A stretch of 64,000 nucleotides of DNA from Minisyncoccota bacterium (GCA_036405175.1 DASWYC010000002.1:603373-667372), one strand, 5' to 3'; shown: positions 1,514 through 56,648, numbered from the stretch's first letter. Notes: generated by a model not told the origin, from the letters alone. Numbers and translations: made by a program.

Positions 1514-1617
1514 GATTTATAAAAGACAGCGGGCTCTATCGGCCCTACGCTCGCGGTCTGATATATTCGCACGTACGTGCTCATTATCAGCCACTGCGCG
1601 ACTGTCTTTTATAAATC
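1514..1617. repeat. Long nested inverted repeat. Outer stem is 16 bp (gatttataaaagacag / ctgtcttttataaatc). Inner palindromes ctgata/tatcag and gcacgtacgtgc.
   Basis: Read directly in the sequence. Begins 4 nt after the virB4 stop. The track ORF 1284..1655 spans it and is probably spurious. Confidence 0.6.
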
Positions 1618-4827: not shown

Positions 4828-7800
4828 ATGAAAAAATTTATCTTAGGTTTGGTGTTCGTGGGAATTACCTTTTTGGGAGCCCAACATGCCAACGCACAAG
4901 TTTTTAATACCTATCCTGGAGATTGTCCAACAATCGGAGTAACTACGCTTGCTAATGCAAGTAATGGTTGTCGAGACTCTTCTATTGATGGTGTAAATCC
5001 TGGAGATATCCTTATTGTAGGGGTATATTTTCACAATACTTCACCAATCGATACAAGCGCAATCGTAAGAATGTCAGACCTCCAAGGAGGATCTGGTAAG
5101 TCTGTTCCTATATACGGAACCATTCAGCCAGCAGATGGTGCAGGGGCTGGTGGGCAAGGAATGGTGCATTTTAGTCAGACATCACGTCTTGAATATATGT
5201 ACACTAAAGTGTACTGGAATGGTCGTGATTTTGGTGGCGGTGGTGTTGAAACCGACCGTACCGGACGCGTATTTACCAGTGGAGAACCTCTCTATCTTGT
5301 TCCTGGAATGTGTTCAAATTGTGCCGATAAATTCATCGATCAGGGTGTTGTAAAAGCATATTATCGTGTTATTGGTCTTGATGCTGCCCCAATTGAGGAG
5401 GCTCCACAGTGGAATACTAACGGATATCCGCGTGTTGTATGTGCTGGAAACAACAATGGAACCGTTACGGTAAAAGCTTTTGGAAATGGAAAGCAAGTTC
5501 AATTTAAGAACTACTTTAATGATAATTGGGTAAATGAATCAGGAAATAACGAATATACTTGGTATAACGTTCCAAACGGAACATATAACACCGCAGTTCG
5601 CTTTGCGGGTTCAGGTAATTCACGTGGAGGTTCATTCCAAGTAAATTGTAATGTTAATAATCCAAACCCTGATCCAGATCCAGGAAATCCACCAAGCGGA
5701 AATTTTGAAAACTTTAAGGTAAAAAATAATACAACCTCTGATGGAATTGTGATTCGTTACACCAGCCCAAGCGGAGATAAGACTTTTGGTCTTAGTGGAA
5801 GTTCTGCTGGCGATGGAAGTCATATTAGTCCATGTATTACTGGTATCAAATCATCAGTAGTAAAAATCAGTGGAGTATCTTGGGCTTCATTTAGTATTAT
5901 TTCGTGTGATGGCGGTCCTTCAAATCCTAATCCAGATCCAGAGCCTCAACAAGGAACTCCTGAGTGGAATACCAATGGGTATCCTCGTGTAATTTGTAAT
6001 AACAATGGAACTGCAAACGTTACTATCAAAGCATATGGAAACGGAAAGCAGGTTCAGTTTAAGCATTACAGCAACGGTTCTTGGGTAACCGAGACAGGAA
6101 ATAATGAATATACATTCTATAATGTTCCTTCTAAATCGGGAGTATATACCACAGGAGTTCGTTTTGTTGGTTCAACTAATGAACGTCAAGGATTCTTTGC
6201 AGTAAGCTGTAACGATCAAGGGCCTACTAATCCCGAGCAAGCTCCTGACTGGAATGTAAATGGATATCCACGTGTGGTATGTAATACTAACGGAACTGCA
6301 ACAGTAACCGTTAAGGCATATGGAAATGGAAAACAAGTACAATTCCGTAACTACAACAACAATAACTGGGTAACTGAAACCGGAAACAACGAATATACCT
6401 GGTATAACGTTCCTTCTCGATCACAGGCATACGCAACTGCTGTTCGCTTTGTTGGTCAAACTGCTGAGCGCGCGGGATACTTTGCCGTAAATTGTAATGA
6501 TGAAGGTCCAACCAATCCAACTAACCAGTGTGCTATTTCTGATGCAAACTGGGATACTGCCGGTTATCCTCGCGTAGAATTCCTTTCTGCTACTTCAAAT
6601 GATGTAAGTGTAATTGTAAAAGCAAAGAATACTGGCGGAAAAACCGTTGAATTCTTTAACGCAGCAACACAGCGCTATGAAGTTGCTAACATGAGTGATA
6701 ATCGTATTATCTGGTCAAATATTATTGCTACCTGGCCAATCGCTGGGCAAAATGGAAACAAGAAATTGTACAGCACCTGGTTGCGATTCCAAGGATGTAC
6801 TGAGCGTGTACAAGGATGGTTTGAGGTAACTCCTCGCGAAGTTAGTGATAACACCACTAAACCAAGCGTAGAGACCCGTAGCCCAGAAGATGTATCACGT
6901 AACTCAGCAACTATTGTTGGAAACTTGCTTTCAAAGGGAGGTCTTTCAACTCAAACATACTTGTATTGGGGACGTCGTCAGGGAAGCACCTGTACCGCAT
7001 CGGATCTTATTTATAAGACTCCAGAAACCACCAACGCTAATACTGGAACCTTTAGTCGCTACATCTCAGGACTCTCAGCTGATACCTGGTATTGTTACCA
7101 AGCCGCAGCATCAAATAATAAGGGAGAAGTGAAGGGTGACATTCGTTCATTCAAAACAACTACTGATTACACACCAAGTGATGTAATTCGTATTGAAACT
7201 ACGTCAGCAACTAACATCTCTTCAGAATACGCAACACTTCGTGGAGAAGTAGTTGATACTGGAGATGCTAATACTGTTCGTACATGGTTTGAATTTGGAA
7301 ACAGCTCTAGTACCGTATCAAACGGAAATGGAACTCGCTACTCTGTATCAGGGGACTTCTATCGTGGAAATTCAATTTCACGTAGCGTAAGTGGACTTCA
7401 GCGAGGAACTCGCTACTACTTCCGTGCGTGTGGAGAAAACACTGTAGGTCAACAAGACTGTGGAGATGTTCTCAGCTTTGTTACTGAAGGAAATAACTCA
7501 ACTATTCAAGTTGATACCGAACAAGAATCAGATGTAAGCTATACTGCTGCTCGTATGCATGGACGTGTACGCGAAACTGGACGAAGCACTCGTCTTCGTA
7601 CTTGGTTTGAGTACAGCACCTCAGAAAACAATGTATACAACGGAAATGGATCACGTATCTATCTTGATAACAACTATGGATACTCACAAGGTCAGTCATT
7701 CTCACAAATGGTAACCGGTTTGCAAAGTAATACTCGTTACTTCTACCGCGCTTGTGGAGATAATACCGAAGGGGAGCGTGACTGTGGTGATGTTGAATCA

Positions 7801-8934
7801 TTTGTAACGCTTTCAAATAACTACAATCCAGTTCAACCAGAACGCCTTGGAACATTGGTTACTACACTTGCTGCAAGTTCAGTACGTCAGTACAATGCTC
7901 GCTTGAATGGATCATTCAATGCTCGTGATTGTTCTTCTGAATTGTGGTTTGAATACGGACGCACCAGCTCTCTTGGAGAAGTGGTAAATATTGGAACTCG
8001 TTCAGCATATGATCGTGGAGTGGTTTCTGCTGATATCTCAGGATTGAAGCCAAACACCACCTACTACTTCCGCATTGTTGGAAGTGGCTGTGGATCAATT
8101 GTTCGTGGAGCTACCAAGACCTTTAAGACTCCAAAAACTACCACAACCGTAGTAAATCCTCCTGTCAAACAAAAACCAGTAGTAAAAGTTATTCAAGTTA
8201 AGGAAGACGTAAATGTTGCTGCAGAAAGCATCTGTTCTCCTGATCTTGATCTTAAGATTGATAACAATCGTGATACTATTGGAAACCGTGAAGAATTTGA
8301 TTACGTAATTACCTATCAAAATCTTACGCAAACATACGTGCTCCGCGATATTGAAATGCAGGTAGAAATTCCTCCACAGCTTGAATTTGTAAGCTCATCA
8401 CGAGGAACCTACAACAAGGCATCTCACTCTCTCTTTATTTCACGCATGGATCTTAATCCATCACAGCGTGAGACATTCACCGTAACGGTGCGTGCTAAGA
8501 AGGGATTGGTAGAAGGTGATCTTATTGTTGCATCAGCAACTGCATCATTCATCAGTCCAACTACCGGAATCAACGATAGTTCAACCGACTTTGATTCTGA
8601 TGAATACTTGAATTCTCGTAATTCTAATGGATCATCAGACAATAGTAGTGATCGTTCACTATTTGGAAGTTCAGATAATGGTGGAAATGGATTCCTTCCA
8701 TCAAGTCTTGTTGGATGGTTGTCACTTATCTTCTTGGTATTCCTCTTCATTGCAGCACTTCGCTGGCTCTGGTTTGGAAAGAAGGGAAATGAATACAACT
8801 ATGCCTACGGACCATACGGAGTTCCTCCAACCAACAATGTGTATGGCGCACCGGTACAACCTGTAGCACCCGTTGCTCCGGTTCAACCAGTTCAGCCAAT
8901 CTACGTTCCATTTAATCCAAATCAACCAAGATAA
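4828..8934 (+). CDS. Giant cell-surface protein (1368 aa): signal peptide, 3-4 tandem ~95-aa modules, ~5 Fn3-like modules, DUF11-like repeat domain, C-terminal TM anchor and Pro-rich tail
   Basis: Signal peptide MKKFILGLVFVGITFLGAQHANA. WNTNGYPRV...GNGKQVQF...GNNEYT.YNVP...VRF.G...CN is repeated three times with PNPDPDP linkers. Repeated W(F/Y)E(F/Y)G...YY(F)R..G.N..G..DCGDV.SF.T modules follow. TM helix GWLSLIFLVFLFIAAL, then an APVQPVAPVAPVQPVQP tail. Confidence 0.8.
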   Translation: MKKFILGLVFVGITFLGAQHANAQVFNTYPGDCPTIGVTTLANASNGCRDSSIDGVNPGDILIVGVYFHNTSPIDTSAIVRMSDLQGGSGKSVPIYGTIQPADGAGAGGQGMVHFSQTSRLEYMYTKVYWNGRDFGGGGVETDRTGRVFTSGEPLYLVPGMCSNCADKFIDQGVVKAYYRVIGLDAAPIEEAPQWNTNGYPRVVCAGNNNGTVTVKAFGNGKQVQFKNYFNDNWVNESGNNEYTWYNVPNGTYNTAVRFAGSGNSRGGSFQVNCNVNNPNPDPDPGNPPSGNFENFKVKNNTTSDGIVIRYTSPSGDKTFGLSGSSAGDGSHISPCITGIKSSVVKISGVSWASFSIISCDGGPSNPNPDPEPQQGTPEWNTNGYPRVICNNNGTANVTIKAYGNGKQVQFKHYSNGSWVTETGNNEYTFYNVPSKSGVYTTGVRFVGSTNERQGFFAVSCNDQGPTNPEQAPDWNVNGYPRVVCNTNGTATVTVKAYGNGKQVQFRNYNNNNWVTETGNNEYTWYNVPSRSQAYATAVRFVGQTAERAGYFAVNCNDEGPTNPTNQCAISDANWDTAGYPRVEFLSATSNDVSVIVKAKNTGGKTVEFFNAATQRYEVANMSDNRIIWSNIIATWPIAGQNGNKKLYSTWLRFQGCTERVQGWFEVTPREVSDNTTKPSVETRSPEDVSRNSATIVGNLLSKGGLSTQTYLYWGRRQGSTCTASDLIYKTPETTNANTGTFSRYISGLSADTWYCYQAAASNNKGEVKGDIRSFKTTTDYTPSDVIRIETTSATNISSEYATLRGEVVDTGDANTVRTWFEFGNSSSTVSNGNGTRYSVSGDFYRGNSISRSVSGLQRGTRYYFRACGENTVGQQDCGDVLSFVTEGNNSTIQVDTEQESDVSYTAARMHGRVRETGRSTRLRTWFEYSTSENNVYNGNGSRIYLDNNYGYSQGQSFSQMVTGLQSNTRYFYRACGDNTEGERDCGDVESFVTLSNNYNPVQPERLGTLVTTLAASSVRQYNARLNGSFNARDCSSELWFEYGRTSSLGEVVNIGTRSAYDRGVVSADISGLKPNTTYYFRIVGSGCGSIVRGATKTFKTPKTTTTVVNPPVKQKPVVKVIQVKEDVNVAAESICSPDLDLKIDNNRDTIGNREEFDYVITYQNLTQTYVLRDIEMQVEIPPQLEFVSSSRGTYNKASHSLFISRMDLNPSQRETFTVTVRAKKGLVEGDLIVASATASFISPTTGINDSSTDFDSDEYLNSRNSNGSSDNSSDRSLFGSSDNGGNGFLPSSLVGWLSLIFLVFLFIAALRWLWFGKKGNEYNYAYGPYGVPPTNNVYGAPVQPVAPVAPVQPVQPIYVPFNPNQPR
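5401..6528 (+). repeat. Intragenic tandem DNA repeats (~285 nt, approximate copies at 5401..5690, 5955..6240, 6241..6528)
   Basis: The near-identical protein modules imply a nucleotide repeat. Copies 2 and 3 are directly adjacent. Confidence 0.6.
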
Positions 8935-9153: not shown

Positions 9154-9597
9154 ATGTTAACGATTACTACTAACAATTCTGGTGAAGCAGCGAAGTATTT
9201 TTTTGACACTATTCAGCATCAAGTTGAAACTGATGGGAAAGTAATTATTGCTTTAAAGGGTGATTTGGGGGCAGGAAAAACCACATTGGTGCAGGAGTTT
9301 TGCAAAATGTGTGGCGTACAAGATGTAGTAACGAGTCCAACCTTTCCCATCATGAATGTGTATGAAGGAGAAATTAATGAACAGAAAACAGTGATTCATC
9401 ACTTTGACTGGTATCGCTTGGATTCTATGGCTGATCTAGGAGTGATTAATTTGCCGATGATTTTATCTCAATTAGGAATATTTTTTATCGAATGGCCAGA
9501 AAAACTACCGGAAGTATTAGGCGATTACGAACACTATGTACTTTCAATAGATATTGAAGGAGAGAGTAGAATTTATAATCTTGAGAAACACAATTAA
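9154..9597 (+). CDS. tsaE: tRNA threonylcarbamoyladenosine biosynthesis protein TsaE (YjeE)
   Basis: P-loop GDLGAGKTTLVQ, then SPTFPIMNVYEG and HHFDWYRL, all typical of TsaE. Confidence 0.8.
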   Translation: MLTITTNNSGEAAKYFFDTIQHQVETDGKVIIALKGDLGAGKTTLVQEFCKMCGVQDVVTSPTFPIMNVYEGEINEQKTVIHHFDWYRLDSMADLGVINLPMILSQLGIFFIEWPEKLPEVLGDYEHYVLSIDIEGESRIYNLEKHN

Positions 9598-9600
9598 AAC

Positions 9601-9721
9601 AAATTTAAATTCCTCCAAAGCAGCGCCTCAAGGGCTAGCGCTCGACGATTATTATAGTCGGGTCCAAAGCCCACCCTCCTTAATAATCGTCTGCGCGACT
9701 GCTTTTTTGGAATTTAAATTT
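9601..9721 (+). ncRNA. Candidate structured RNA element, copy 1 of a two-copy family (second copy 56229..56343)
   Basis: Perfect 13-bp outer stem aaatttaaattcc/ggaatttaaattt. Inner 11-bp stem gacgattatta/taataatcgtc. The blocks agcgcctcaa, gattattatag and ctccttaata.tcgtctg are shared with copy 2. Confidence 0.4.
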
Positions 9722-9758
9722 GTTTTAGAGATTCCCTATTTTCATATATACTAAACCC

Positions 9759-12110
9759 ATGAAACCAGCCCCTATTGTACTTATTGATGCCTACGCGTTG
9801 CTTCATCGCGGATATCACGCATTTCCTCATCTTTCTACGCCAGAAGGCTTTCCAACGGGAGCACTCTATGGATTTACGGCCATGATCGTGCGGATCATTG
9901 AAAAATACGATCCAAAAGACGTTTTGGTGTGTTTTGATATGCCGGAGGAGACGTTTCGCCATGTTGCGTATGAGCAGTATAAGGCGGGCCGTCTAGAGAC
10001 CGATGAGTCTCTTAAGGTTCAGCTTCAAGAAGCACATAATCTTGCGCGTGCGTTCGGTTTTTTAGTCTACGAGAGCCCTTCTTTTGAAGCGGACGATTTA
10101 CTTGGAACACTCGCTGAGCAGCTCAAAAAATCGTATGACGGACAGATTATTATTGCCACCGGTGATAAAGATGCTCTTCAATTAATTGATGGCGAAAAGG
10201 TGGTGGTGTACACCTACAAGAAAACCACCAAAGATACTATTTTATATACCGAAGACGAAGTGCTCAAGGACTTTGGCTATACACCGACACAAGTTCCCGA
10301 TTATAAAGGTCTTGCAGGAGATTCATCAGATAATATTCCCGGCATCAAGGGAATTGGTGAAAAAACTGCCTGCAAGTTGTTGCAAAAATTTGGGAGCATT
10401 GAGCACATGTATGAAGTGCTTGAATCAGGCGATGAGGAAGCATTTACCAGTATTGGGGTAAAGGGTGTTTCTCTTCAAAAGGTAAAAGAAGGTAAAGAAG
10501 ATGCGCTCTTTTCAAAAGTAATTGCAACCATTCGCAGAGATGCACCGGTGAGTTACTCGGAAACGGTAACGTGGAAAGAGCGTGCAAAACCTCAGGAAGT
10601 ATTTAGCTATCTTGGAAAATACTACTTTAAATCAATGCTTAATCAATTTAGAACCTATTTTGGCGAACAGTCTGCTGCAGCAGAAAGTTACGATATTGAT
10701 CCGCTGCTCTTTAAAAAAGCTCAGGTTGCTTATTGGCTTTTGGATTCTCAGCAAACCAATCCAAATATTTTAGACATGCAGTTTTTGACCCACAAGCAAA
10801 CTGTCGAAGAAATTCTTGAAGTGCTTGAACAAAAATTAAAAGATCAAAATTTGTTTGAAGTCTACATAGAAATTGAAGTGCCACTTATTCCAATTTTGGC
10901 AGCGATGAAAGAGCGAGGAATCATGATTGATAGAAAACATTTTGAAGATCTTAAAGTTGAATTTGAAACCAAGATTGCAGAATTAGAGCAGAAAATTCAA
11001 AGTTATGCCGAAGGAAAGATTATCAACATTCGTTCACCAAAACAGGTAGGGGAATTGTTGTTTGATATTCTCAAATTACCTGCTAAATATGTTAAAAAAA
11101 CAGCCACCGGTGAGCGTTCAACGAATGAAAAGGAGCTTTTAAAGATGAAAGACGTGCATCCGGTAATTGATTTATTGCTCGAGTATCGCTTTGCGGAAAA
11201 AATGCGCTCAACGTATATTGAAACGTTGCCGCAAACTGCTGATGAAAACGCCGTGATTCATAGTGATCTTATCCAAACAGGAGCATCAACAGGGCGTTTT
11301 GCATCGGCAAACCCAAATCTTCAAAATATCCCAATTCGTAATGACTCGGCAAAACTTATCCGTGGTGGATTTATTGCACGTCCTGGCTATACGTTTTTAG
11401 CAGCAGACTATTCTCAGATTGAGTTGCGCATTGCGGCTATTTTGTCGGGTGATTCTAACTTAATTGAAATCTTTAAACGCGGAGAAGATGTTCATGCGGG
11501 AGTTGCATCGCGTGTGTTTAATAAGCCGCTTAATGAAGTGACCCTTGATGAGCGTCGCAAAGCAAAGGTGATTAACTTTGGAATTGTATATGGAATGGGT
11601 GTAAGTGCGCTGATGGAAAATCTTAAAACTACTCGTGCGGAGGCTCAGCTTTTCTATGATCAATATAAAAGTACGTTTCCGGTTTTGATGAGTTTTATGG
11701 AGGGAACCAAAAGAAGTGCCGAGGAAACAGGGTATACACTTACATTCTTTGGACGCCGCTGCAACTTTAAAGATCTTAAATCAAAAATGCCGTATGTAAA
11801 AGCAATGGCGGAGCGCATGGCGGCTAACGCACCAATTCAAGGAACGGCAACCGCTGATCTTATTAAATTGGCGCTTAGATTTGTATGGGAAGAAATCACT
11901 CAAAAGTATGGGGAAGATATTTGTATGCCACTTCTGCAGATTCATGATGAATTGTTGTTTGAGGTACAGCTTGGCAAAGAAGATGAGATTGGAAAGAAGA
12001 TCAAGGAAGTGATGGAAAGTGTTTTTGAAAAGTCGTATAAAAAGTACAAGTCTGTGGTGCCAATTTTGGTTGATGTACATACGGGAACCTCGTGGGATAA
12101 GCTTAAATAA
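9759..12110 (+). CDS. polA: DNA polymerase I (short form, 783 aa)
   Basis: 5'-3' exonuclease N-terminus (LIDAYALLHRGYHAF...). Pol A motifs RRKAKVINFGIVYGMG and QIHDELLFE. The length implies a reduced or absent 3'-5' exonuclease domain. Confidence 0.85.
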   Translation: MKPAPIVLIDAYALLHRGYHAFPHLSTPEGFPTGALYGFTAMIVRIIEKYDPKDVLVCFDMPEETFRHVAYEQYKAGRLETDESLKVQLQEAHNLARAFGFLVYESPSFEADDLLGTLAEQLKKSYDGQIIIATGDKDALQLIDGEKVVVYTYKKTTKDTILYTEDEVLKDFGYTPTQVPDYKGLAGDSSDNIPGIKGIGEKTACKLLQKFGSIEHMYEVLESGDEEAFTSIGVKGVSLQKVKEGKEDALFSKVIATIRRDAPVSYSETVTWKERAKPQEVFSYLGKYYFKSMLNQFRTYFGEQSAAAESYDIDPLLFKKAQVAYWLLDSQQTNPNILDMQFLTHKQTVEEILEVLEQKLKDQNLFEVYIEIEVPLIPILAAMKERGIMIDRKHFEDLKVEFETKIAELEQKIQSYAEGKIINIRSPKQVGELLFDILKLPAKYVKKTATGERSTNEKELLKMKDVHPVIDLLLEYRFAEKMRSTYIETLPQTADENAVIHSDLIQTGASTGRFASANPNLQNIPIRNDSAKLIRGGFIARPGYTFLAADYSQIELRIAAILSGDSNLIEIFKRGEDVHAGVASRVFNKPLNEVTLDERRKAKVINFGIVYGMGVSALMENLKTTRAEAQLFYDQYKSTFPVLMSFMEGTKRSAEETGYTLTFFGRRCNFKDLKSKMPYVKAMAERMAANAPIQGTATADLIKLALRFVWEEITQKYGEDICMPLLQIHDELLFEVQLGKEDEIGKKIKEVMESVFEKSYKKYKSVVPILVDVHTGTSWDKLK

Positions 12111-15535: not shown

Positions 15536-16765
15536 ATGGAAAACAAAACTTTTCTTGAAAAACTAGGCTTCTTTTTGTGGCCTATCGCTGCCAATCTGGG
15601 TGTATTTATGTATCTCCAAAAGACAAGTCTTATCCCAGCTGTTCAATTCATTGTAAGTGGGGTAATAGGTATTCTTTTGGTATTAATTTCAATTCGTCGT
15701 AGAAATGATGAGTTGAATGAAAGTATAGAGTCAAGTCGAGCGGTTACTATCGCTGTTTTTGCCACCATGCTTTTATGCATTCTGGGGAGGCAATTTGTAG
15801 CCTATAAACCCATTAACTTATTAGGCGAGCTTGCTTTTCTGGGAGTTATCCTAATAGGCATTTGTTTCATTTTTGTCGCCTCAGACGAATCTGTCGAAAA
15901 AGACTATGGGATATCTCATTACCTCAGTAAATCTGCAGCAATATTTGCTGTTGTGGGACTAATTCACGAAGCATATTGCTACTTCGGAACTCAATTTATA
16001 TGGGTGCCATTGATTTGTTTTTTCTGTTGCATGGTTCTTTTAAAGGGAGATGAAATCATCAATGATATTCTTAGCGACCATGCTCCAAAAATGATGACAA
16101 TGCTAATTGCTATTGGTGTAGTTAGTACACTCTATCAGTTTTGGTTTACCAGGCTATTCTCAGGTCCAATGTTATGGGAGGCTTTACTTGGTATGGCCAC
16201 CTCTATCATAATAGTTGGCATATTTCTGTTCATTGCTCGAAACATTCGAAGAAATGAGGAGAAAAAAAGAAAAGATAGTCTAAATACTCGTAAGCAGGAA
16301 GAAGATGAAAAGGATAGAGGGTTAAAGGAAAAAAAGAAGCAGGAAGATGTCGCTAAGTACTATGCTGAACTAAAAGAGGAATCTCCGAGTTGGGACAGTA
16401 TTCTATTTATTGCAGCCAATGTTCAGTGGAGAAGTGACAGTGATGCATACCAGGTTCTGGTTGAAGCAATTAGGAAAAAGAGTTTATCTGTTTTAATTAC
16501 TTCATCACAAGTAAAAGAACAAATGTTCTGGAAGGGTAATTCATTGGAAGATGCCCTGAAATTCGTTAATGATCTTTTTGACTTTTCATCTGATGATGAG
16601 ACTCTAAAGATGCTCATAGAAAAGTATAAAGAATTTAATTCTTTTATTGAAAGTCACAAGGACCTGAAAGGCTATGAAGCCTTACAGAAAAACTCAGGCA
16701 ATCTTTGCTCGTCAATTGTGAGTATCGCCAAGAAAGATGTTAAAAAAGAAGTTGTTGAAGTTTAA
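15536..16765 (+). CDS. Hypothetical polytopic membrane protein with a K/E-rich cytoplasmic C-terminal domain (409 aa)
   Basis: About six hydrophobic helices in the N-terminal 230 aa, then a highly charged RRNEEKKRKD...KEKKKQED linker and a soluble domain. Confidence 0.55.
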   Translation: MENKTFLEKLGFFLWPIAANLGVFMYLQKTSLIPAVQFIVSGVIGILLVLISIRRRNDELNESIESSRAVTIAVFATMLLCILGRQFVAYKPINLLGELAFLGVILIGICFIFVASDESVEKDYGISHYLSKSAAIFAVVGLIHEAYCYFGTQFIWVPLICFFCCMVLLKGDEIINDILSDHAPKMMTMLIAIGVVSTLYQFWFTRLFSGPMLWEALLGMATSIIIVGIFLFIARNIRRNEEKKRKDSLNTRKQEEDEKDRGLKEKKKQEDVAKYYAELKEESPSWDSILFIAANVQWRSDSDAYQVLVEAIRKKSLSVLITSSQVKEQMFWKGNSLEDALKFVNDLFDFSSDDETLKMLIEKYKEFNSFIESHKDLKGYEALQKNSGNLCSSIVSIAKKDVKKEVVEV

Positions 16766-18039: not shown

Positions 18040-18055
18040 GTTGCTGAGAATAGAA

Positions 18056-18088
18056 AAGAGTCGCACCGCCAGGTGCGACTCTTTTTAA
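18056..18088 (+). terminator. Rho-independent terminator
   Basis: agagtcgcacc-gcca-ggtgcgactct followed by ttttaatt. Confidence 0.8.
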
Positions 18089-18121
18089 TTTCTCACCATT
18101 GACTTAGTCCATGGCTGTATT

Positions 18122-22005: not shown

Positions 22006-22030
22006 CGTGTGCTCTCGCTAGGAATCGAAC

Positions 22031-22102
22031 CTAGATCACGGGTACCGCAAACCCGCGTTCTATCCATTGAACTACGAAAGCAGTAGTGAAATAATACCAT
22101 AT
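22031..22102 (-). tRNA. tRNA-Arg (anticodon reads GCG by hand parse)
   Basis: Reverse complement: acceptor gctttcg/cgagagc, D-arm gttc-aatggata-gaac, anticodon stem cgggt/acccg with loop ttgcggt, T-arm ctagg-ttcgatt-cctag. Confidence 0.65.
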
Positions 22103-38899: not shown

Positions 38900-38968
38900 A
38901 TTTTTATTATAGCAAGACGTTACGAGCCAAAATTAAAAAACTATGAATACAATTTTATTTTCACTCGG

Positions 38969-39040
38969 TGCTTCCACTAGGAATCGAACCTAGATCAAGG
39001 GCTTAGAAGTCCCCTGTTCTATCCATTGAACTATAGAAGC
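38969..39040 (-). tRNA. tRNA-Arg (anticodon TCT)
   Basis: Reverse complement: acceptor gcttcta/tggaagc, D-arm gttc-aatggata-gaac, anticodon loop cttctaa, T-arm ctagg-ttcgatt-cctag. One non-canonical pair closes the anticodon stem. Confidence 0.7.
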
Positions 39041-39125
39041 GATAGTGCAATAATACAACAGATTTGGGATTTTTCAATGAAATAATACAAAAAAATCTCA
39101 TGCGTGAACATGAGATTTTTTTGCT

Positions 39126-53456: not shown

Positions 53457-56204
53457 TTATTCTCGCTTAAATCGTCCAAAGATTTCTGCTTCAACTTCAG
53501 CCCGTATGTGGCCATGTTTAAGTTGAGATAATTCTTTAAGCTTATCAATATTATCCCGATTACCTTGAGGAAGCTCTAGCGTGTGGATATTAAATGCTCG
53601 TTGAGGAACACCGCCAGACAGCATAGAAACATATGCATTTCGGTTCTTCTGTTTAATAATATCTTCCTTGGTAAACACTGGGTCAAGACGCTTTTGTAGC
53701 TGTTCTGCATCGTCAGGGTCAACACGGAAAATTGCCATGGTTCCAACGTTTCCAAATACTGCATTTCTAATACCATCATCAAGCTGGCGCAAATACTGGT
53801 GAGCAACATTCAATGACAATCTATATTTACGAGCTTCAGACAAGATAGATGCAATTGATGGAGTTGTAACATTCTGGAACTCATCTAAGTACAGATAAAA
53901 ATCTTTATGTTGTTGTCCATATGCTGCACCAGCACGCCCGAGTGCTGCCATTTGGATTTTGTTCACGAGCACCAATCCAATCAAACTTGCATTGAGTTCT
54001 CCAAGGCGACCCTTAGAAAGATTTACAATTAAAATCTTTCCTTGATCCATGATCTCGCGAATATTTATTGAAGATTTTTGCTGCAAAATAATGGGGCGCA
54101 AAAATTCATTAGTAATGAATGGGTCAAAGAAGCGGGTAACATAGGGAACAAAGTTTTCGAGTGCTTGATCACCTTTAGCCTTTTTGGCATTCTCAAAGAA
54201 CTGATTAATGATAGGATTTTTACATTTTGCTAATTTTGCTTCCCGGAATGCCTCATCACCCAAAACACGGGTAATTTCAAGCAAAGTGCTTCCAGACTCA
54301 GGATCTTCCATTACGAGCATTGCTGAGTTTTTAAAGTATTGTTCAAATGCAGGACCAGCTGTTGCTTTCATATCAAAGAGCTTGTTAAAAATCACCATAA
54401 GCTCATCAATTACTAACGTCTTTTGTTCGGGGAATAGAGGATCATATTCCAACATGTTAAGCCCCATGGGTCGTTCGGTATTTGCAGGATCAAAGTAAAT
54501 CACATCATCAATACGATGCGGTGGAATCAAAGAAAGAATCGTTTGTGCGTCAGTTCCGTGTGGATCAATATAGCAAACACCTTCGCCGTTATTAATATCC
54601 TGGAGAATCATGGTCAAAAGCGTTCCGGTCTTTCCGGTTCCTGTTTGTCCAATTGCATAAAAGTGGCGCATGCGATCATCCTTTGGATAATGAATTTCAG
54701 TATCTTTACCAGCATTATTATTAATGCCTAAAAGAATTCCTTCTTGAACAAGCTCAAGCGGAGCTGGGGCAGTTTTTGCTTCATTGAATTTAACTTCTGG
54801 GATAAGGTTCTGGCTGAGTTGAGGGAAGTGGAAAATAGTTGCCAACTCTTCTGAGCTTAGAATAAATTTACTGTTGCCTCCAAATTCGCGGAAGATAAAT
54901 TTGGTGATAAAGGTTTCCATGCTTTTATCTGGAACACGGCTCACGACATATGAGTTTCCCGAAGGGTGACGTAAGTGCATGATTGATCCACCAACTTCAG
55001 TAATCAGCGCATCAGACTTTTGCTTGCTTTGGGTACACACTACAATGTTCATTGAAACGCGGAACAAGTGGTGACCAAGTTTTTTCTGAAGGAGACCTTG
55101 GCGCTCAGAGTCATTATGATTAAGTGAATCTTTTTTGTCCTCATCAGATCTACCACTTAAAAAGAGGGAGTTGAGCGCTTTTGAAACAGCATGTTGAGAC
55201 GCTTCTTCTATTGCTTCTTTCATCTTTTTTCCTTTTTGAAGCAACTTATTCACTTCTTCAAGTTCTTTTCGATCTTCTTTCTTTTCAGTTGCTACCGTAA
55301 TTTGAATCGTGGCGCCTTCCGTTTCTTTTTCAAGACGAGACAACATATTAACAATTACCTGAAGCGGATCAGTTTCATAATCGTTATATGAGGGAAGGGT
55401 ATATGATGAATGTTCTTTAAGGTGAACTTCTGCAGCTGCAAGATATCCAGACTCCAAAAACATATTGGTATCATCAAGAAGTTCTTTTACTTGAATGGTT
55501 GGGAAAAATCCAATGATCGATTTCTCAATTGCTGTTTTTGATTCTTTTGGTACGGCAACAAAAAACACAATTTGTCCACGTGAAGGAATGAATGAGATTT
55601 CAAAATTAATACTTTCGTTTTCGCCAAGCATTGAAGATATAGAGGTATACACTTGTTCCATGGTTGCAGCTAATGCTTTGTGAGATGTTCGTTCGCCTTG
55701 ATGATCAGGAGCAATAGTAATTTCAAGAAGTGTCTTGTGAGTTGGTTCAAAAAAACGGGACTCAATCTTAAGTTCTTGCCCATTCATTTTTTGATATGCG
55801 CGAACATACTGGATAAGAAAGCGATGAAAATCATCTTCAATATGAGGATTATGAAGACCTTCAACAAGTGCCAGTGTTTTTGCAATGCCATGCGCTTCTA
55901 AAAATGAAAAGAGCACCTGCATGTTTTGGTCATGAGATTCCGGAGTAAGAAGCTGTTGAACTTCTTGAAAGAGTGGTTGATGCTGTGCAACTTGTTCCTG
56001 GGGAAGCTGAGGAATAGTTTGTTGAACAATCTCTTTTGATTTTACTACTTGTTCCTTAATGGGGAGGTTTTTAAATTGAGGCTGTTTAAATGCTTCATGA
56101 TTACGATAGTATTCAAGCTCCTGTTGAATGTGTGCAGGAATTTTTTCCGGGGTGGGTGCTGATGGTGCGGGTGTAAAATTAGGATTAAGAGGAATCTCAT
56201 TCAT
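53457..56204 (-). CDS. VirD4/TraG/TraD-like type IV coupling protein ATPase with a ~450-aa N-terminal extension
   Basis: Walker A YAIGQTGTGKTGTLLTM, Walker B FYLYLDEFQNV, and conserved C-terminal T4CP region. The N-terminal half is Q/E/K-rich and lacks the usual two-TM anchor. Confidence 0.7.
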   Translation of the reverse strand: MNEIPLNPNFTPAPSAPTPEKIPAHIQQELEYYRNHEAFKQPQFKNLPIKEQVVKSKEIVQQTIPQLPQEQVAQHQPLFQEVQQLLTPESHDQNMQVLFSFLEAHGIAKTLALVEGLHNPHIEDDFHRFLIQYVRAYQKMNGQELKIESRFFEPTHKTLLEITIAPDHQGERTSHKALAATMEQVYTSISSMLGENESINFEISFIPSRGQIVFFVAVPKESKTAIEKSIIGFFPTIQVKELLDDTNMFLESGYLAAAEVHLKEHSSYTLPSYNDYETDPLQVIVNMLSRLEKETEGATIQITVATEKKEDRKELEEVNKLLQKGKKMKEAIEEASQHAVSKALNSLFLSGRSDEDKKDSLNHNDSERQGLLQKKLGHHLFRVSMNIVVCTQSKQKSDALITEVGGSIMHLRHPSGNSYVVSRVPDKSMETFITKFIFREFGGNSKFILSSEELATIFHFPQLSQNLIPEVKFNEAKTAPAPLELVQEGILLGINNNAGKDTEIHYPKDDRMRHFYAIGQTGTGKTGTLLTMILQDINNGEGVCYIDPHGTDAQTILSLIPPHRIDDVIYFDPANTERPMGLNMLEYDPLFPEQKTLVIDELMVIFNKLFDMKATAGPAFEQYFKNSAMLVMEDPESGSTLLEITRVLGDEAFREAKLAKCKNPIINQFFENAKKAKGDQALENFVPYVTRFFDPFITNEFLRPIILQQKSSINIREIMDQGKILIVNLSKGRLGELNASLIGLVLVNKIQMAALGRAGAAYGQQHKDFYLYLDEFQNVTTPSIASILSEARKYRLSLNVAHQYLRQLDDGIRNAVFGNVGTMAIFRVDPDDAEQLQKRLDPVFTKEDIIKQKNRNAYVSMLSGGVPQRAFNIHTLELPQGNRDNIDKLKELSQLKHGHIRAEVEAEIFGRFKRE

Positions 56205-56228
56205 GCGTAAATTATATCATTGTGATTT

Positions 56229-56343
56229 AAAAAACTTTCTTGAAGCCAGCGCCTCAATGTTAACGCTTGATGATTATTATAGTTGCACCCAGAGCTCGTG
56301 CTCCTTAATAGTCGTCTGTGCAACTAGTTTCAAAAAGTTTTTT
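56229..56343 (+). ncRNA. Candidate structured RNA element, copy 2
   Basis: Outer stem aaaaaactttcttgaa/ttcaaaaagtttttt. Inner stem gatgattatta/taatagtcgtc carries two G·U wobbles at positions that are Watson-Crick in copy 1. A third helix agttgcac/gtgcaact is also present. Confidence 0.4.
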
Positions 56344-56357
56344 GTGAGATTTAGTTT

Positions 56358-56386
56358 TTGACGATAAGGCATAAATGTGCATAATG
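56358..56386 (+). promoter_or_regulatory. Promoter TTGACG-N17-ATAATG (TG-extended)
   Basis: ttgacg 56358..56363, tg 56378..56379, cataat/ataatg 56380..56386. Lies 22 nt upstream of the ATG at 56408. Confidence 0.5.
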
Positions 56387-56407
56387 AGAACATTAAACCT
56401 TATTAAG

Positions 56408-56554
56408 ATGGTACACCGAAAACTAAAGAGAGAAGCATCTCAGTTCAGAGCCTCAACTCGCAAAGAGAAAAAAGGAAGATATAGTAAAGCCGAAAAAGAG
56501 GATTCTAAAGACAACAGCTCAGCAGCAATTCAAACCGCTACAGCTGAAAATTAA
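56408..56554 (+). CDS. Unannotated small basic protein (48 aa)
   Basis: Translation MVHRKLKREASQFRASTRKEKKGRYSKAEKEDSKDNSSAAIQTATAEN. Promoter upstream and hairpin terminator 56576..56608 downstream. No SD. Confidence 0.4.
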   Translation: MVHRKLKREASQFRASTRKEKKGRYSKAEKEDSKDNSSAAIQTATAEN

Positions 56555-56575
56555 ATCTTTACAGATTCTTCAGAA

Positions 56576-56608
56576 GAAGCCCATGGATTTTGTCTATGGG
56601 CTTTTGTT
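56576..56608 (+). terminator. Rho-independent terminator
   Basis: agcccat-ggattttgtct-atgggct followed by tttgttg. Confidence 0.65.
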
Positions 56609-56620
56609 GTATAAAAACCT

Positions 56621-56648
56621 AGATAAAAATAAAACCCCGTTAAGGGCT
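56621..56648 (-). terminator. Rho-independent terminator for rpmB (minus strand)
   Basis: Reverse strand reads aaagccc-ttaac-ggggttt followed by tatttttat, starting directly after the rpmB stop. Confidence 0.7.

Follow-up and report, generated by a model that had tools for sequence, protein, structure and literature searches.

What are the structured sequences that recur between the genes of this reduced genome of the Paceibacterota (CPR)? Descriptions of repeat families or regulatory RNAs from the very small genomes of CPR/Patescibacteria are, to our knowledge, few. The window, by which we mean the whole 64,000-nt stretch of DNA analysed here, contains two such sequences, at positions 9601–9721 (copy 1) and 56229–56343 (copy 2). 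They are homologous, with a core identity of ∼76–80%. A repeat finder returned a 70-nt ungapped stretch with 76% identity between them, and the 18-nt block CTCCTTAATANTCGTCTG has two exact occurrences in the window where 0.10 would be expected by chance. The likeness of copies 1 and 2 is thus genuine and beyond chance. An earlier note on this DNA had described a two-copy element with ordered blocks in common and a single 1-nt indel. The blocks, their positions and the single 1-nt indel within the core were all borne out by MAFFT alignment of copies 1 and 2, while the count of two has to be revised.

A covariance model built from copies 1 and 2 (R1), the search that the earlier note had proposed, was run and yielded both a third copy and its orthologue in a sister species. 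Copy 3 is located at 1509–1621 on the + strand and is diverged from the other two (56.9 bits, E ∼1e-12, against 137.7 bits for copy 1 and 123.8 bits for copy 2 with the same model). Its orthologue is complete at L030 2479–2591 and truncated at L007 1–79 (L numbers are our handles for the sequences compared with the window). Rebuilding the model from four sequences, namely the three paralogues and the sister-species orthologue, gave R2, with which copy 3 scores 95.2 bits. All three copies lie on the + strand and all are intergenic. They fall within ∼81 kb of the genome (the window plus its flanks L033 and L022), the largest contig being 668 kb. A search with R2 of ∼310 kb from this genome, the sister species, two further relatives and chance-match loci, including ∼17 kb of window flanks, ∼52 kb of the sister species and ∼70 kb of the two relatives, returned no additional member. 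With filters off, R2 likewise found no further member in the window, and its weak matches were to ordinary terminators only.

The window begins near the replication origin, as dnaA and dnaN (L033 1320–2705) are located ∼9 kb to the left of its start, and the leading-strand side carries all three copies and the majority of the genes. The window also holds repeats of other kinds. The 1368-aa ORF at 4828–8934, a giant predicted surface protein with Pur_ac_phosph_N/fn3-like domains that is conserved beside type IV secretion-like genes in relatives, carries three to four diverged internal repeats of ∼180–280 nt at 5395–6518. Two tRNA-Arg genes on the minus strand (22009–22097 and 38968–39056, anticodons gcg and tct) are 79% identical over 89 nt, and their likeness runs ∼17 nt past the tRNA into the flank.

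The layout of the three copies is as follows.

9595–9727, + strand: copy 1, the whole palindrome including the extended outer stem, between tsaE (9154–9597) and polA (9759–12110)
9595–9623, + strand: copy 1, 5′ arm of closing stem P1, of which the outer part (9595–9613) is locus-specific
9614–9616, + strand: copy 1, internal loop of P1
9617–9623, + strand: copy 1, inner part of P1, AAAGCAG, homologous between copies
9625–9635, + strand: copy 1, side hairpin Pa, GCCU CAA GGGC, in both the RNA and the DNA minimum-free-energy folds
9638–9696, + strand: copy 1, long arm Pb-P3-P4, with pair counts taken on the four-sequence alignment
9638–9641 with 9693–9696, + strand: copy 1, Pb, GCGC with GCGC
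9644–9654 with 9681–9691, + strand: copy 1, P3, with a 2-bp extension (9656–9657 with 9679–9680)
9660–9663 with 9673–9676, + strand: copy 1, P4, with a 9-nt loop (9664–9672)
9699–9727, + strand: copy 1, 3′ arm of P1, which reads CUGC, then six U (9703–9708), then GGAAUUUAAAUUUGUUUUA
56229–56343, + strand: copy 2, between a divergent traG-like gene (53457–56204, minus strand) and a 56-aa ORF (56384–56554)
56269–56316, + strand: copy 2, span of P3 (56269–56279 with 56306–56316) and P4 (56285–56288 with 56298–56301)
56281–56288 with 56318–56325, + strand: copy 2, competing 8-bp helix, AGUUGCAC with GUGCAACU, the third helix of the earlier note
1509–1621, + strand: copy 3, between a virB4-like gene (stop codon 1508–1510) and a prgI-like gene (1702–2127)
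1512–1529 with 1602–1619, + strand: copy 3, P1, 18 bp and perfect
1531–1545, + strand: copy 3, Pa
1548–1550 with 1598–1600, + strand: copy 3, Pb
1558–1563 with 1585–1590, + strand: copy 3, P3, plus a lower part
1569–1580, + strand: copy 3, P4, GCAC GUAC GUGC

The copies have a conserved secondary structure with compensatory changes. A nested fold is common to the four sequences and consists of the closing stem P1, a small side hairpin and the long arm Pb-P3-P4; copies 1 and 3 also have the same minimum-free-energy architecture, with P1, Pa and then Pb, P3 with its 2-bp extension and P4. In the four-row alignment, which was fitted to the model and includes two near-identical orthologues, so that its support for pairing is strong but descriptive rather than a statistical test, 95.8% of the cells of the nested structure are paired, compared to 32–48% in slid controls in which the 3′ partners were shifted by 1–3 columns. 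Eighteen pairs are changed on both sides in this alignment and four helices are kept by compensatory change. Helix 4 has 9 double-changed pairs among its 17 and is paired in 98.5% of cells, Pb is 100% paired with zero double changes, and P4 covaries (GGGU/ACCC vs GCAC/GUGC). The covarying stems reported earlier, gacgattatta/taataatcgtc in copy 1 and gatgattatta/taatagtcgtc in copy 2, are present as quoted. Certain junction nucleotides are conserved in all copies (CAGCG, CGCUYG, UAUAKUYG and CUGYGCRACU).

P1 is a composite. The copies are homologous in its inner 7–8 bp, AARG(N)CAG/CUG(N)CYUU, while its outer part is unrelated in sequence from one copy to the next and is perfectly paired in copies 1 and 3. 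That the outer stems differ between copies and stay complementary was correctly described before, although the stem of copy 1 is longer than was then thought, at 19 bp (9595–9613 with 9709–9727). It contains the tsaE stop codon TAA (9595–9597), and the 3′ arm of P1 overlaps the predicted polA −35 box (9724–9729). The inverted repeat of copy 1 (I1) has 29-nt arms that are 90% complementary, and 37 of the 37 modelled pairs in this copy are Watson-Crick. Copy 2 is the most degenerate, with three G·U pairs, one C·A mismatch and Pa lost: it is unable to form this hairpin, which has a counterpart in copy 3 (GGGCU..GGCCC at 1531–1545). In its minimum-free-energy fold under DNA parameters, the competing 8-bp helix replaces P3. 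Three further non-Watson-Crick entries for the outer stem of copy 2 are register artefacts of the forced alignment.

The strand argument drawn from the fold is weak. The G·U wobbles of copy 2 had been put forward as an argument for an RNA read from the + strand, but they are offset by two C·A mismatches (copy 2, inner P1; copy 3, P3) that would be G·U on the minus strand. Although the + strand RNA folds better than its shuffles (z of −8.1, −3.6 and −6.95 for copies 1, 2 and 3), the minus strand and DNA parameters give folding that is about as good.

Two further features of the apical region had been singled out, a pseudoknot and a likeness to the 3′ end of 16S rRNA. The third helix behind the pseudoknot proposal, which changes from agtcg/cgact to agttgcac/gtgcaact, does exist, whereas the pseudoknot itself is not established. 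As the 5-bp crossing helix AGUCG/CGACU it is 90% paired across the alignment, with a compensatory change in copy 2 and a disruption in copy 3; at the very column where copy 3 breaks it, the rival nested pair goes from G-C to U-A and is thereby kept. Copy 3 has GUAC as its P4 loop where copies 1 and 2 have loops of 9 nt, so that this loop is not a conserved pseudoknot partner. Moreover, the rpsT terminator of this genome, a plain stem, has the same complementarity, so that of the crossing helix may be inherited. The 16S-like site CCUCCUUAA, said to be carried by each copy, proved not to be conserved, since copy 2 has GCUCCUUAA and copy 3 has GCUCAUUAU. In copy 3 CUCCUU (within CCUCCUU) becomes CUCAUU, and as this C-to-A change is the compensatory partner of the nested pair, the likeness to the 16S 3′ end is incidental.

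A small protein gene running through the core, in the + strand frame LDDYYS..QS..SLI.VCAT.F, has a negligible probability. Copies 1 and 2 do share a frame, in which their codon differences are 6 synonymous and 7 non-synonymous; however, because of the 1-nt indel the block CAGCGCCTCAA does not fall in the same frame in both, copy 1 lacks an ATG, and the substitutions are accounted for by base pairing. Judged by its sequence, copy 3 effectively refutes this reading, having frame-breaking indels (5-nt and 1-nt deletions and a longer hairpin) and an unrelated translation. Promoters inside the element (TATAGT/TATATT on the + strand; TATAAT and AAGGAG on the minus strand) were considered and dropped, as they come without a matching −35 box or a conserved ORF.

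The position of the elements relative to the neighbouring promoters bears on whether they could act as leaders. Both copies had been said to end ∼15–30 nt from a promoter −35 box, yet there is no fixed geometry, the distance from element end to predicted −35 box being ∼3 nt in copy 1, ∼15 nt in copy 2 and ∼47 nt in copy 3 (the last read from the sequence by eye). The predicted promoters of polA and the 56-aa ORF are downstream of copies 1 and 2 respectively, which puts these elements outside the 5′ UTRs of both genes; a riboswitch or 5′ leader would lie between promoter and start codon, and copies 1 and 2 do not. A cis-regulatory leader for polA is unlikely, as polA's own −10 box (TATACT, 9747–9752, 6 nt before the ATG) lies downstream of copy 1. 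Genes that look leaderless, with a −10-like box (GATATACT, GATATAAT or TATAAT) 6–8 nt before the ATG, recur here: such boxes precede the polA, traG-like and prgI-like genes (9747–9761, 56204–56218 on the minus strand, and ∼1687–1704), and polA has this leaderless look in three relatives as well.

The elements also bear comparison with the terminators of this genome. Ordinary terminators in the window are perfect stems of 14–19 bp with 3–6-nt loops, a 5′ A-run and a 3′ T-run, and P1 of each element resembles these hairpins. The best match to R2 from outside the family, with filters off, was one of them (18.7 bits, E ∼0.05):

18049–18090, + strand: rpsT terminator hairpin, AAAAG AGTCGCACC gcca GGTGCGACT CTTTT, not a family member

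It shares with the elements the stem frame AG-AGTCGCAC..GTGCGACT-CTTTT, the matching segments are aligned by MAFFT, and it is possibly a progenitor-type or collapsed form of the elements. The rpsT hairpin is also found near L007 ∼16503–16541, as AAAAGAGTCGCACC gcca GGTGCGACTCTTTT. A simple terminator scan called none of the copies because their ∼75-nt ‘loop’ is far too large for its rules. Copies 1 and 3 have U-tracts directly behind genes, with CUGC and six U after tsaE in the former and CUGUCUUUUAU after virB4 in the latter, where P1 starts 2 nt after the stop codon. Copy 2 has no upstream gene on the + strand and sits between divergent promoters.

The reading that we favour, tentatively and at a little less than an even chance, is a small lineage-restricted family of terminator-derived structured palindromic repeats in 3′ UTRs, similar to SPRITEs and Rickettsia palindromic elements (RPEs). 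Its members would be imperfect palindromes of ∼113–133 bp that have as their base the Rho-independent terminator hairpin typical of this genome, each with a long A-run/T-run closing stem that carries a conserved, apparently Y-shaped apical domain of ∼75 nt in place of the tetraloop. As the stop codons of tsaE and virB4 lie at, or directly before, the starts of copies 1 and 3, the position of these copies suggests that they are transcribed as mRNA 3′ ends, where stem and U-tract most likely terminate transcription and protect the 3′ end. The site of copy 2 would need no terminator, and this copy appears to be decaying. Among the identities listed in the earlier note, the best fit is to a small mobile palindromic element or an element of the 3′ UTR; a novel ncRNA is possible and a leader is unlikely.

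Conserved junction nucleotides and perfectly kept helices would also be in keeping with an RNA selected for its function. A serious rival, which we consider possible though rather unlikely, is a dedicated family of structured ncRNAs. It would comprise a three-way junction, possibly with a pseudoknot, whose apical domain is functional, e.g., protein-binding or catalytic. As a processing stem, P1 would then serve to free the RNA from operon transcripts, perhaps through cleavage by RNase III; stems of 18–26 bp, as in P1, are sufficient for RNase III. The compensatory changes that keep P1, P3 and P4 are in line with this, as are the sequence conservation of the junction and loop-flanking nucleotides and the orientation of all copies with the surrounding genes, but the loop of P4 (9 nt vs GUAC) and Pa (lost in copy 2) are not conserved, and copy 2 is without an upstream + strand gene or a convincing promoter. 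Folding equally well on both strands and with DNA parameters also speaks against it, and four sequences, of which two are nearly identical, are too few for statistically valid covariation. On the other hand, copy 3 is kept at the orthologous site of the sister species, where a base change restores or breaks a P3 pair.

Such an RNA would be new, since no Rfam family matches the elements; the earlier note, too, could place them in no known RNA family. Against Rfam 15, none of the three copies matched a family at gathering score (including twister, hammerhead, pistol, hatchet, HDV-like, 5S, SRP, 6S and tRNA-like families), and permissive E-values of up to 10 gave only chance matches to microRNA and sRNA hairpins, far below threshold. 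Likenesses to hammerhead (CUGAUGA), twister-like (GGUCCAAAGCCC), C/D-box, dif, DnaA-box and IHF-site motifs were rejected, as each occurs in one copy only. In the GTDB representative genomes, the pattern GCGCCTCAA..CCANAGC..CTCCTTAA, which fits copies 1 and 2 only and whose negative result thus does not extend to copy-3-like members, had two matches, both by chance inside unrelated sequence. In the JGI metagenomes, GATTATTATAG..CTCCTTAATANTC had 0 matches, and a family-level pattern that recovers all three window copies had one chance match, rejected by the model. Three pattern scans of IMG/VR, the family-level pattern among them, gave either no match or six chance matches, again rejected by the model; phage and plasmid collections held nothing that blastn could match to copy 1; and the literature on CPR ncRNAs and repeats held nothing on the element. 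The family is therefore new to Rfam and to the collections searched, and its distribution is very narrow. That these large collections yielded no homologue with the patterns tried weighs further against a dedicated ncRNA.

Distribution among close relatives points the same way: the sister species lacks two of the three copies, and the next relative has none of them. Copy 1 is missing at the tsaE-polA site in three relatives whose TsaE proteins are 84%, 65% and 52% identical. Copy 2 is missing in the sister species, where the TraG-like protein is 95% identical, together with the whole ∼395-nt block at 56229–56622 that carries copy 2, a promoter, the 56-aa ORF and a terminator. The promoter of this block is TTGACG-16-CATAAT, and the 56-aa ORF (56384–56554) is very basic and has no Pfam match. 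Copy 3 is common to the sister species (VirB4 99% identical) and missing in the next relative (VirB4 92% identical), in which unrelated long hairpins occupy the virB4-prgI and tsaE-polA sites. These unrelated hairpins of the more distant relative are at L026 11828–11905 (virB4-prgI) and L010 520–590 (tsaE-polA); the loop of the former contains GGGTCCAA, as does P4 of copy 1, which may be coincidence. At the tsaE-polA site of copy 1, the sister species has a 202-aa hydrophobic ORF (L007 8571–9179) with no Pfam match. The tsaE-polA intergenic site is a hotspot at which sequence is gained and lost. Copy 1, found in none of the relatives examined, is pristine, and copy 2 is degenerate.

Presence and absence of this kind would be expected of a MITE, a classical non-autonomous transposon moved in trans by a transposase whose gene lies in another part of the genome. 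MITEs are <500 bp, intergenic and AT-rich, with hairpin transcripts and multiple copies that show insertion polymorphism (PMC10969869). At 113–133 bp, intergenic, non-coding and AT-rich at their ends, the elements fit this description, as do their predicted stable hairpin transcript (fold z −3.6 to −8.1), their three copies and the absence of copies 1 and 2 from orthologous sites of the sister species. Even so, we regard a MITE as very improbable. There is no relation between the outer arms AAATTTAAATTCC, AAAAAACTTTC and TTGATTTAT, what the copies share being limited to the inner AARG(N)CAG/CTG(N)CYTT, and the longest exact flanking repeats are 3–5 nt, a length reached in 30–70% of trials with shuffled flanks, so that none is above chance. 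A gapped candidate target-site duplication at copy 2, TTGTGA(GA)TTT, was rejected as not significant in T-rich flanks. Pairwise divergence among the three copies is 24–40%, which means that no copy is the donor of another and is too much for any of them to have arisen from another by recent transposition; recent spread would require source copies as yet unseen. Scanning ∼50 window ORFs against Pfam gave no transposase, integrase, reverse transcriptase, relaxase or RAYT. The earlier note had held that many copies in both orientations, as in a MITE, would argue against its RNA interpretation: the family is indeed multi-copy and present or absent between close relatives, while its three copies share one orientation.

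Within the favoured reading of terminator-derived repeats, the presence and absence pattern shows that duplication or insertion has spread the family, or turned it over, between close species, in a manner that does not look like classical transposition with terminal inverted repeats and target-site duplications. The perfect, locus-specific outer stem could mean that the core inserts into the loops of pre-existing terminators, or that recombination moves whole blocks. As a counterpoint, the outer stems are unrelated and there is no significant flanking direct repeat, and the empty sites in relatives have no terminator hairpins of the kind needed for insertion of a core into a loop.

Copy 3 is also the site of an assembly anomaly. 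Twelve Logan contig ends, from at least nine sequencing runs and two species, fall at window 1543–1556 (contigs L007 and L019–L021 start there, and L029 and L032–L038 end there), while SPAdes contigs and the window itself run straight through. In a k=31 graph, such breaks are the signature that a second allele would leave if it held additional DNA between 13–14-nt repeats, whether through an insertion, as the core of an attachment site or through tandem duplication. They could also come from further partial copies elsewhere in the genome, or from a sequencing artefact linked to the hairpin or inverted repeat.

Along with the type IV secretion genes nearby, which prompted the idea, these breaks bear on whether the elements are DNA-level sites, that is, hairpins or cruciforms for site-specific recombination or integration, much as tRNA genes act as attB sites, or single-strand DNA structures for replication or transfer. 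All 12 of the 12 Logan contig ends that touch copy 3 fall inside it and overlap only in CCCTACGCTCGCG(G), copies 2 and 3 adjoin traG-like and virB4/prgI-like genes, and as DNA both strands fold equally well. However, the alternative allele was not seen, technical causes or extra near-identical copies would yield the same contig breaks, and there are no breaks at copies 1 and 2, where L003 and L022 run through. As the scan of ∼50 window ORFs gave no integrase or relaxase, and type IV secretion genes are conserved across Paceibacterota while the element is not, a DNA-level site seems to us most unlikely.

An intermediate proposal, which we consider improbable, is that the apical domain (a three-way junction, perhaps with an AGUYG/CRACU pseudoknot on P1) is a new Paceibacterota RNA module and that copy 3 is an attachment site as well. 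The module would ride on terminator stems, e.g., as a protein-binding or processing signal at mRNA 3′ ends. Use of copy 3 as the attachment site of an integrative element, in the manner of a tRNA gene, would explain why all k=31 assemblies of the two species branch at the same 13–14 nt. If the apical domain is functional or copy 3 is an integration site, a phylum that has been poorly explored would gain a new RNA or DNA module. If, instead, the elements are terminator-derived repeats that proliferate, streamlined CPR/Patescibacteria genomes would still be hosts to proliferating non-coding elements, and the family would offer a way to study the insulation of leaderless, tightly packed genes from one another.

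Several known systems resemble these elements in part. Integron attC sites have R′′/R′ core sites at their ends, a cassette array and an integron integrase, features that the elements do not share: the ends of copy 1 are TTAAAAC/GTTTTAG, those of the other copies are off the consensus RYYYAAC ... GTTRRRY, the copies lie 8 and 46 kb apart among core genes, and the window ORFs scanned contain no integrase. REP/BIME sequences are extragenic palindromes with a proposed role in termination and in stabilising mRNA (PMC3733652). Like a REP, P3 has CGTC at its foot in copies 1 and 2; however, REPs are 20–40 bp long with a GTAG/CGTC head, a high copy number and a RAYT transposase, whereas the elements are three to four times too large (113–133 bp), copy 3 has lost the CGTC and the window has no RAYT-like gene. 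Correia, ERIC and QMITE elements are likewise small, AT-rich, intergenic and hairpin-forming. They differ in their conserved terminal inverted repeats and target-site duplications, which were looked for in the elements and not found. Transcripts of bacterial MITEs can be cleaved by RNase III or affect mRNA 3′ ends (PMC10969869).

RPEs are closer in size, being palindromic repeats of ∼100–150 bp in a reduced genome, with diverged copies of which some are common to species and others lineage-specific, and with no known mechanism of mobilisation (PMC10969869). Unlike the elements, which are intergenic and in which copy 3 excludes a conserved reading frame, RPEs are often found in frame inside protein genes and encode a conserved peptide. 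The ordinary Rho-independent (bidirectional) terminators of this genome have an A-run, stem and T-run in common with the elements and stand directly after stop codons, and the inner frame is that of rpsT; in the elements a structured insert of ∼75 nt with its own helices replaces the 3–6-nt loop, and copy 2 lies between divergent promoters. SPRITE terminator-like repeats and structured MITE transcripts have been described (PMC10969869), and the elements are like SPRITEs in being short, intergenic, non-coding and multi-copy within one lineage, with a terminator-like transcript (PMC10969869). The two have no sequence relation, and the elements are set apart by their locus-specific outer stem, their ∼75-nt Y-shaped apical domain, their three copies so far and their host, a member of the Paceibacterota (CPR) with a reduced genome.
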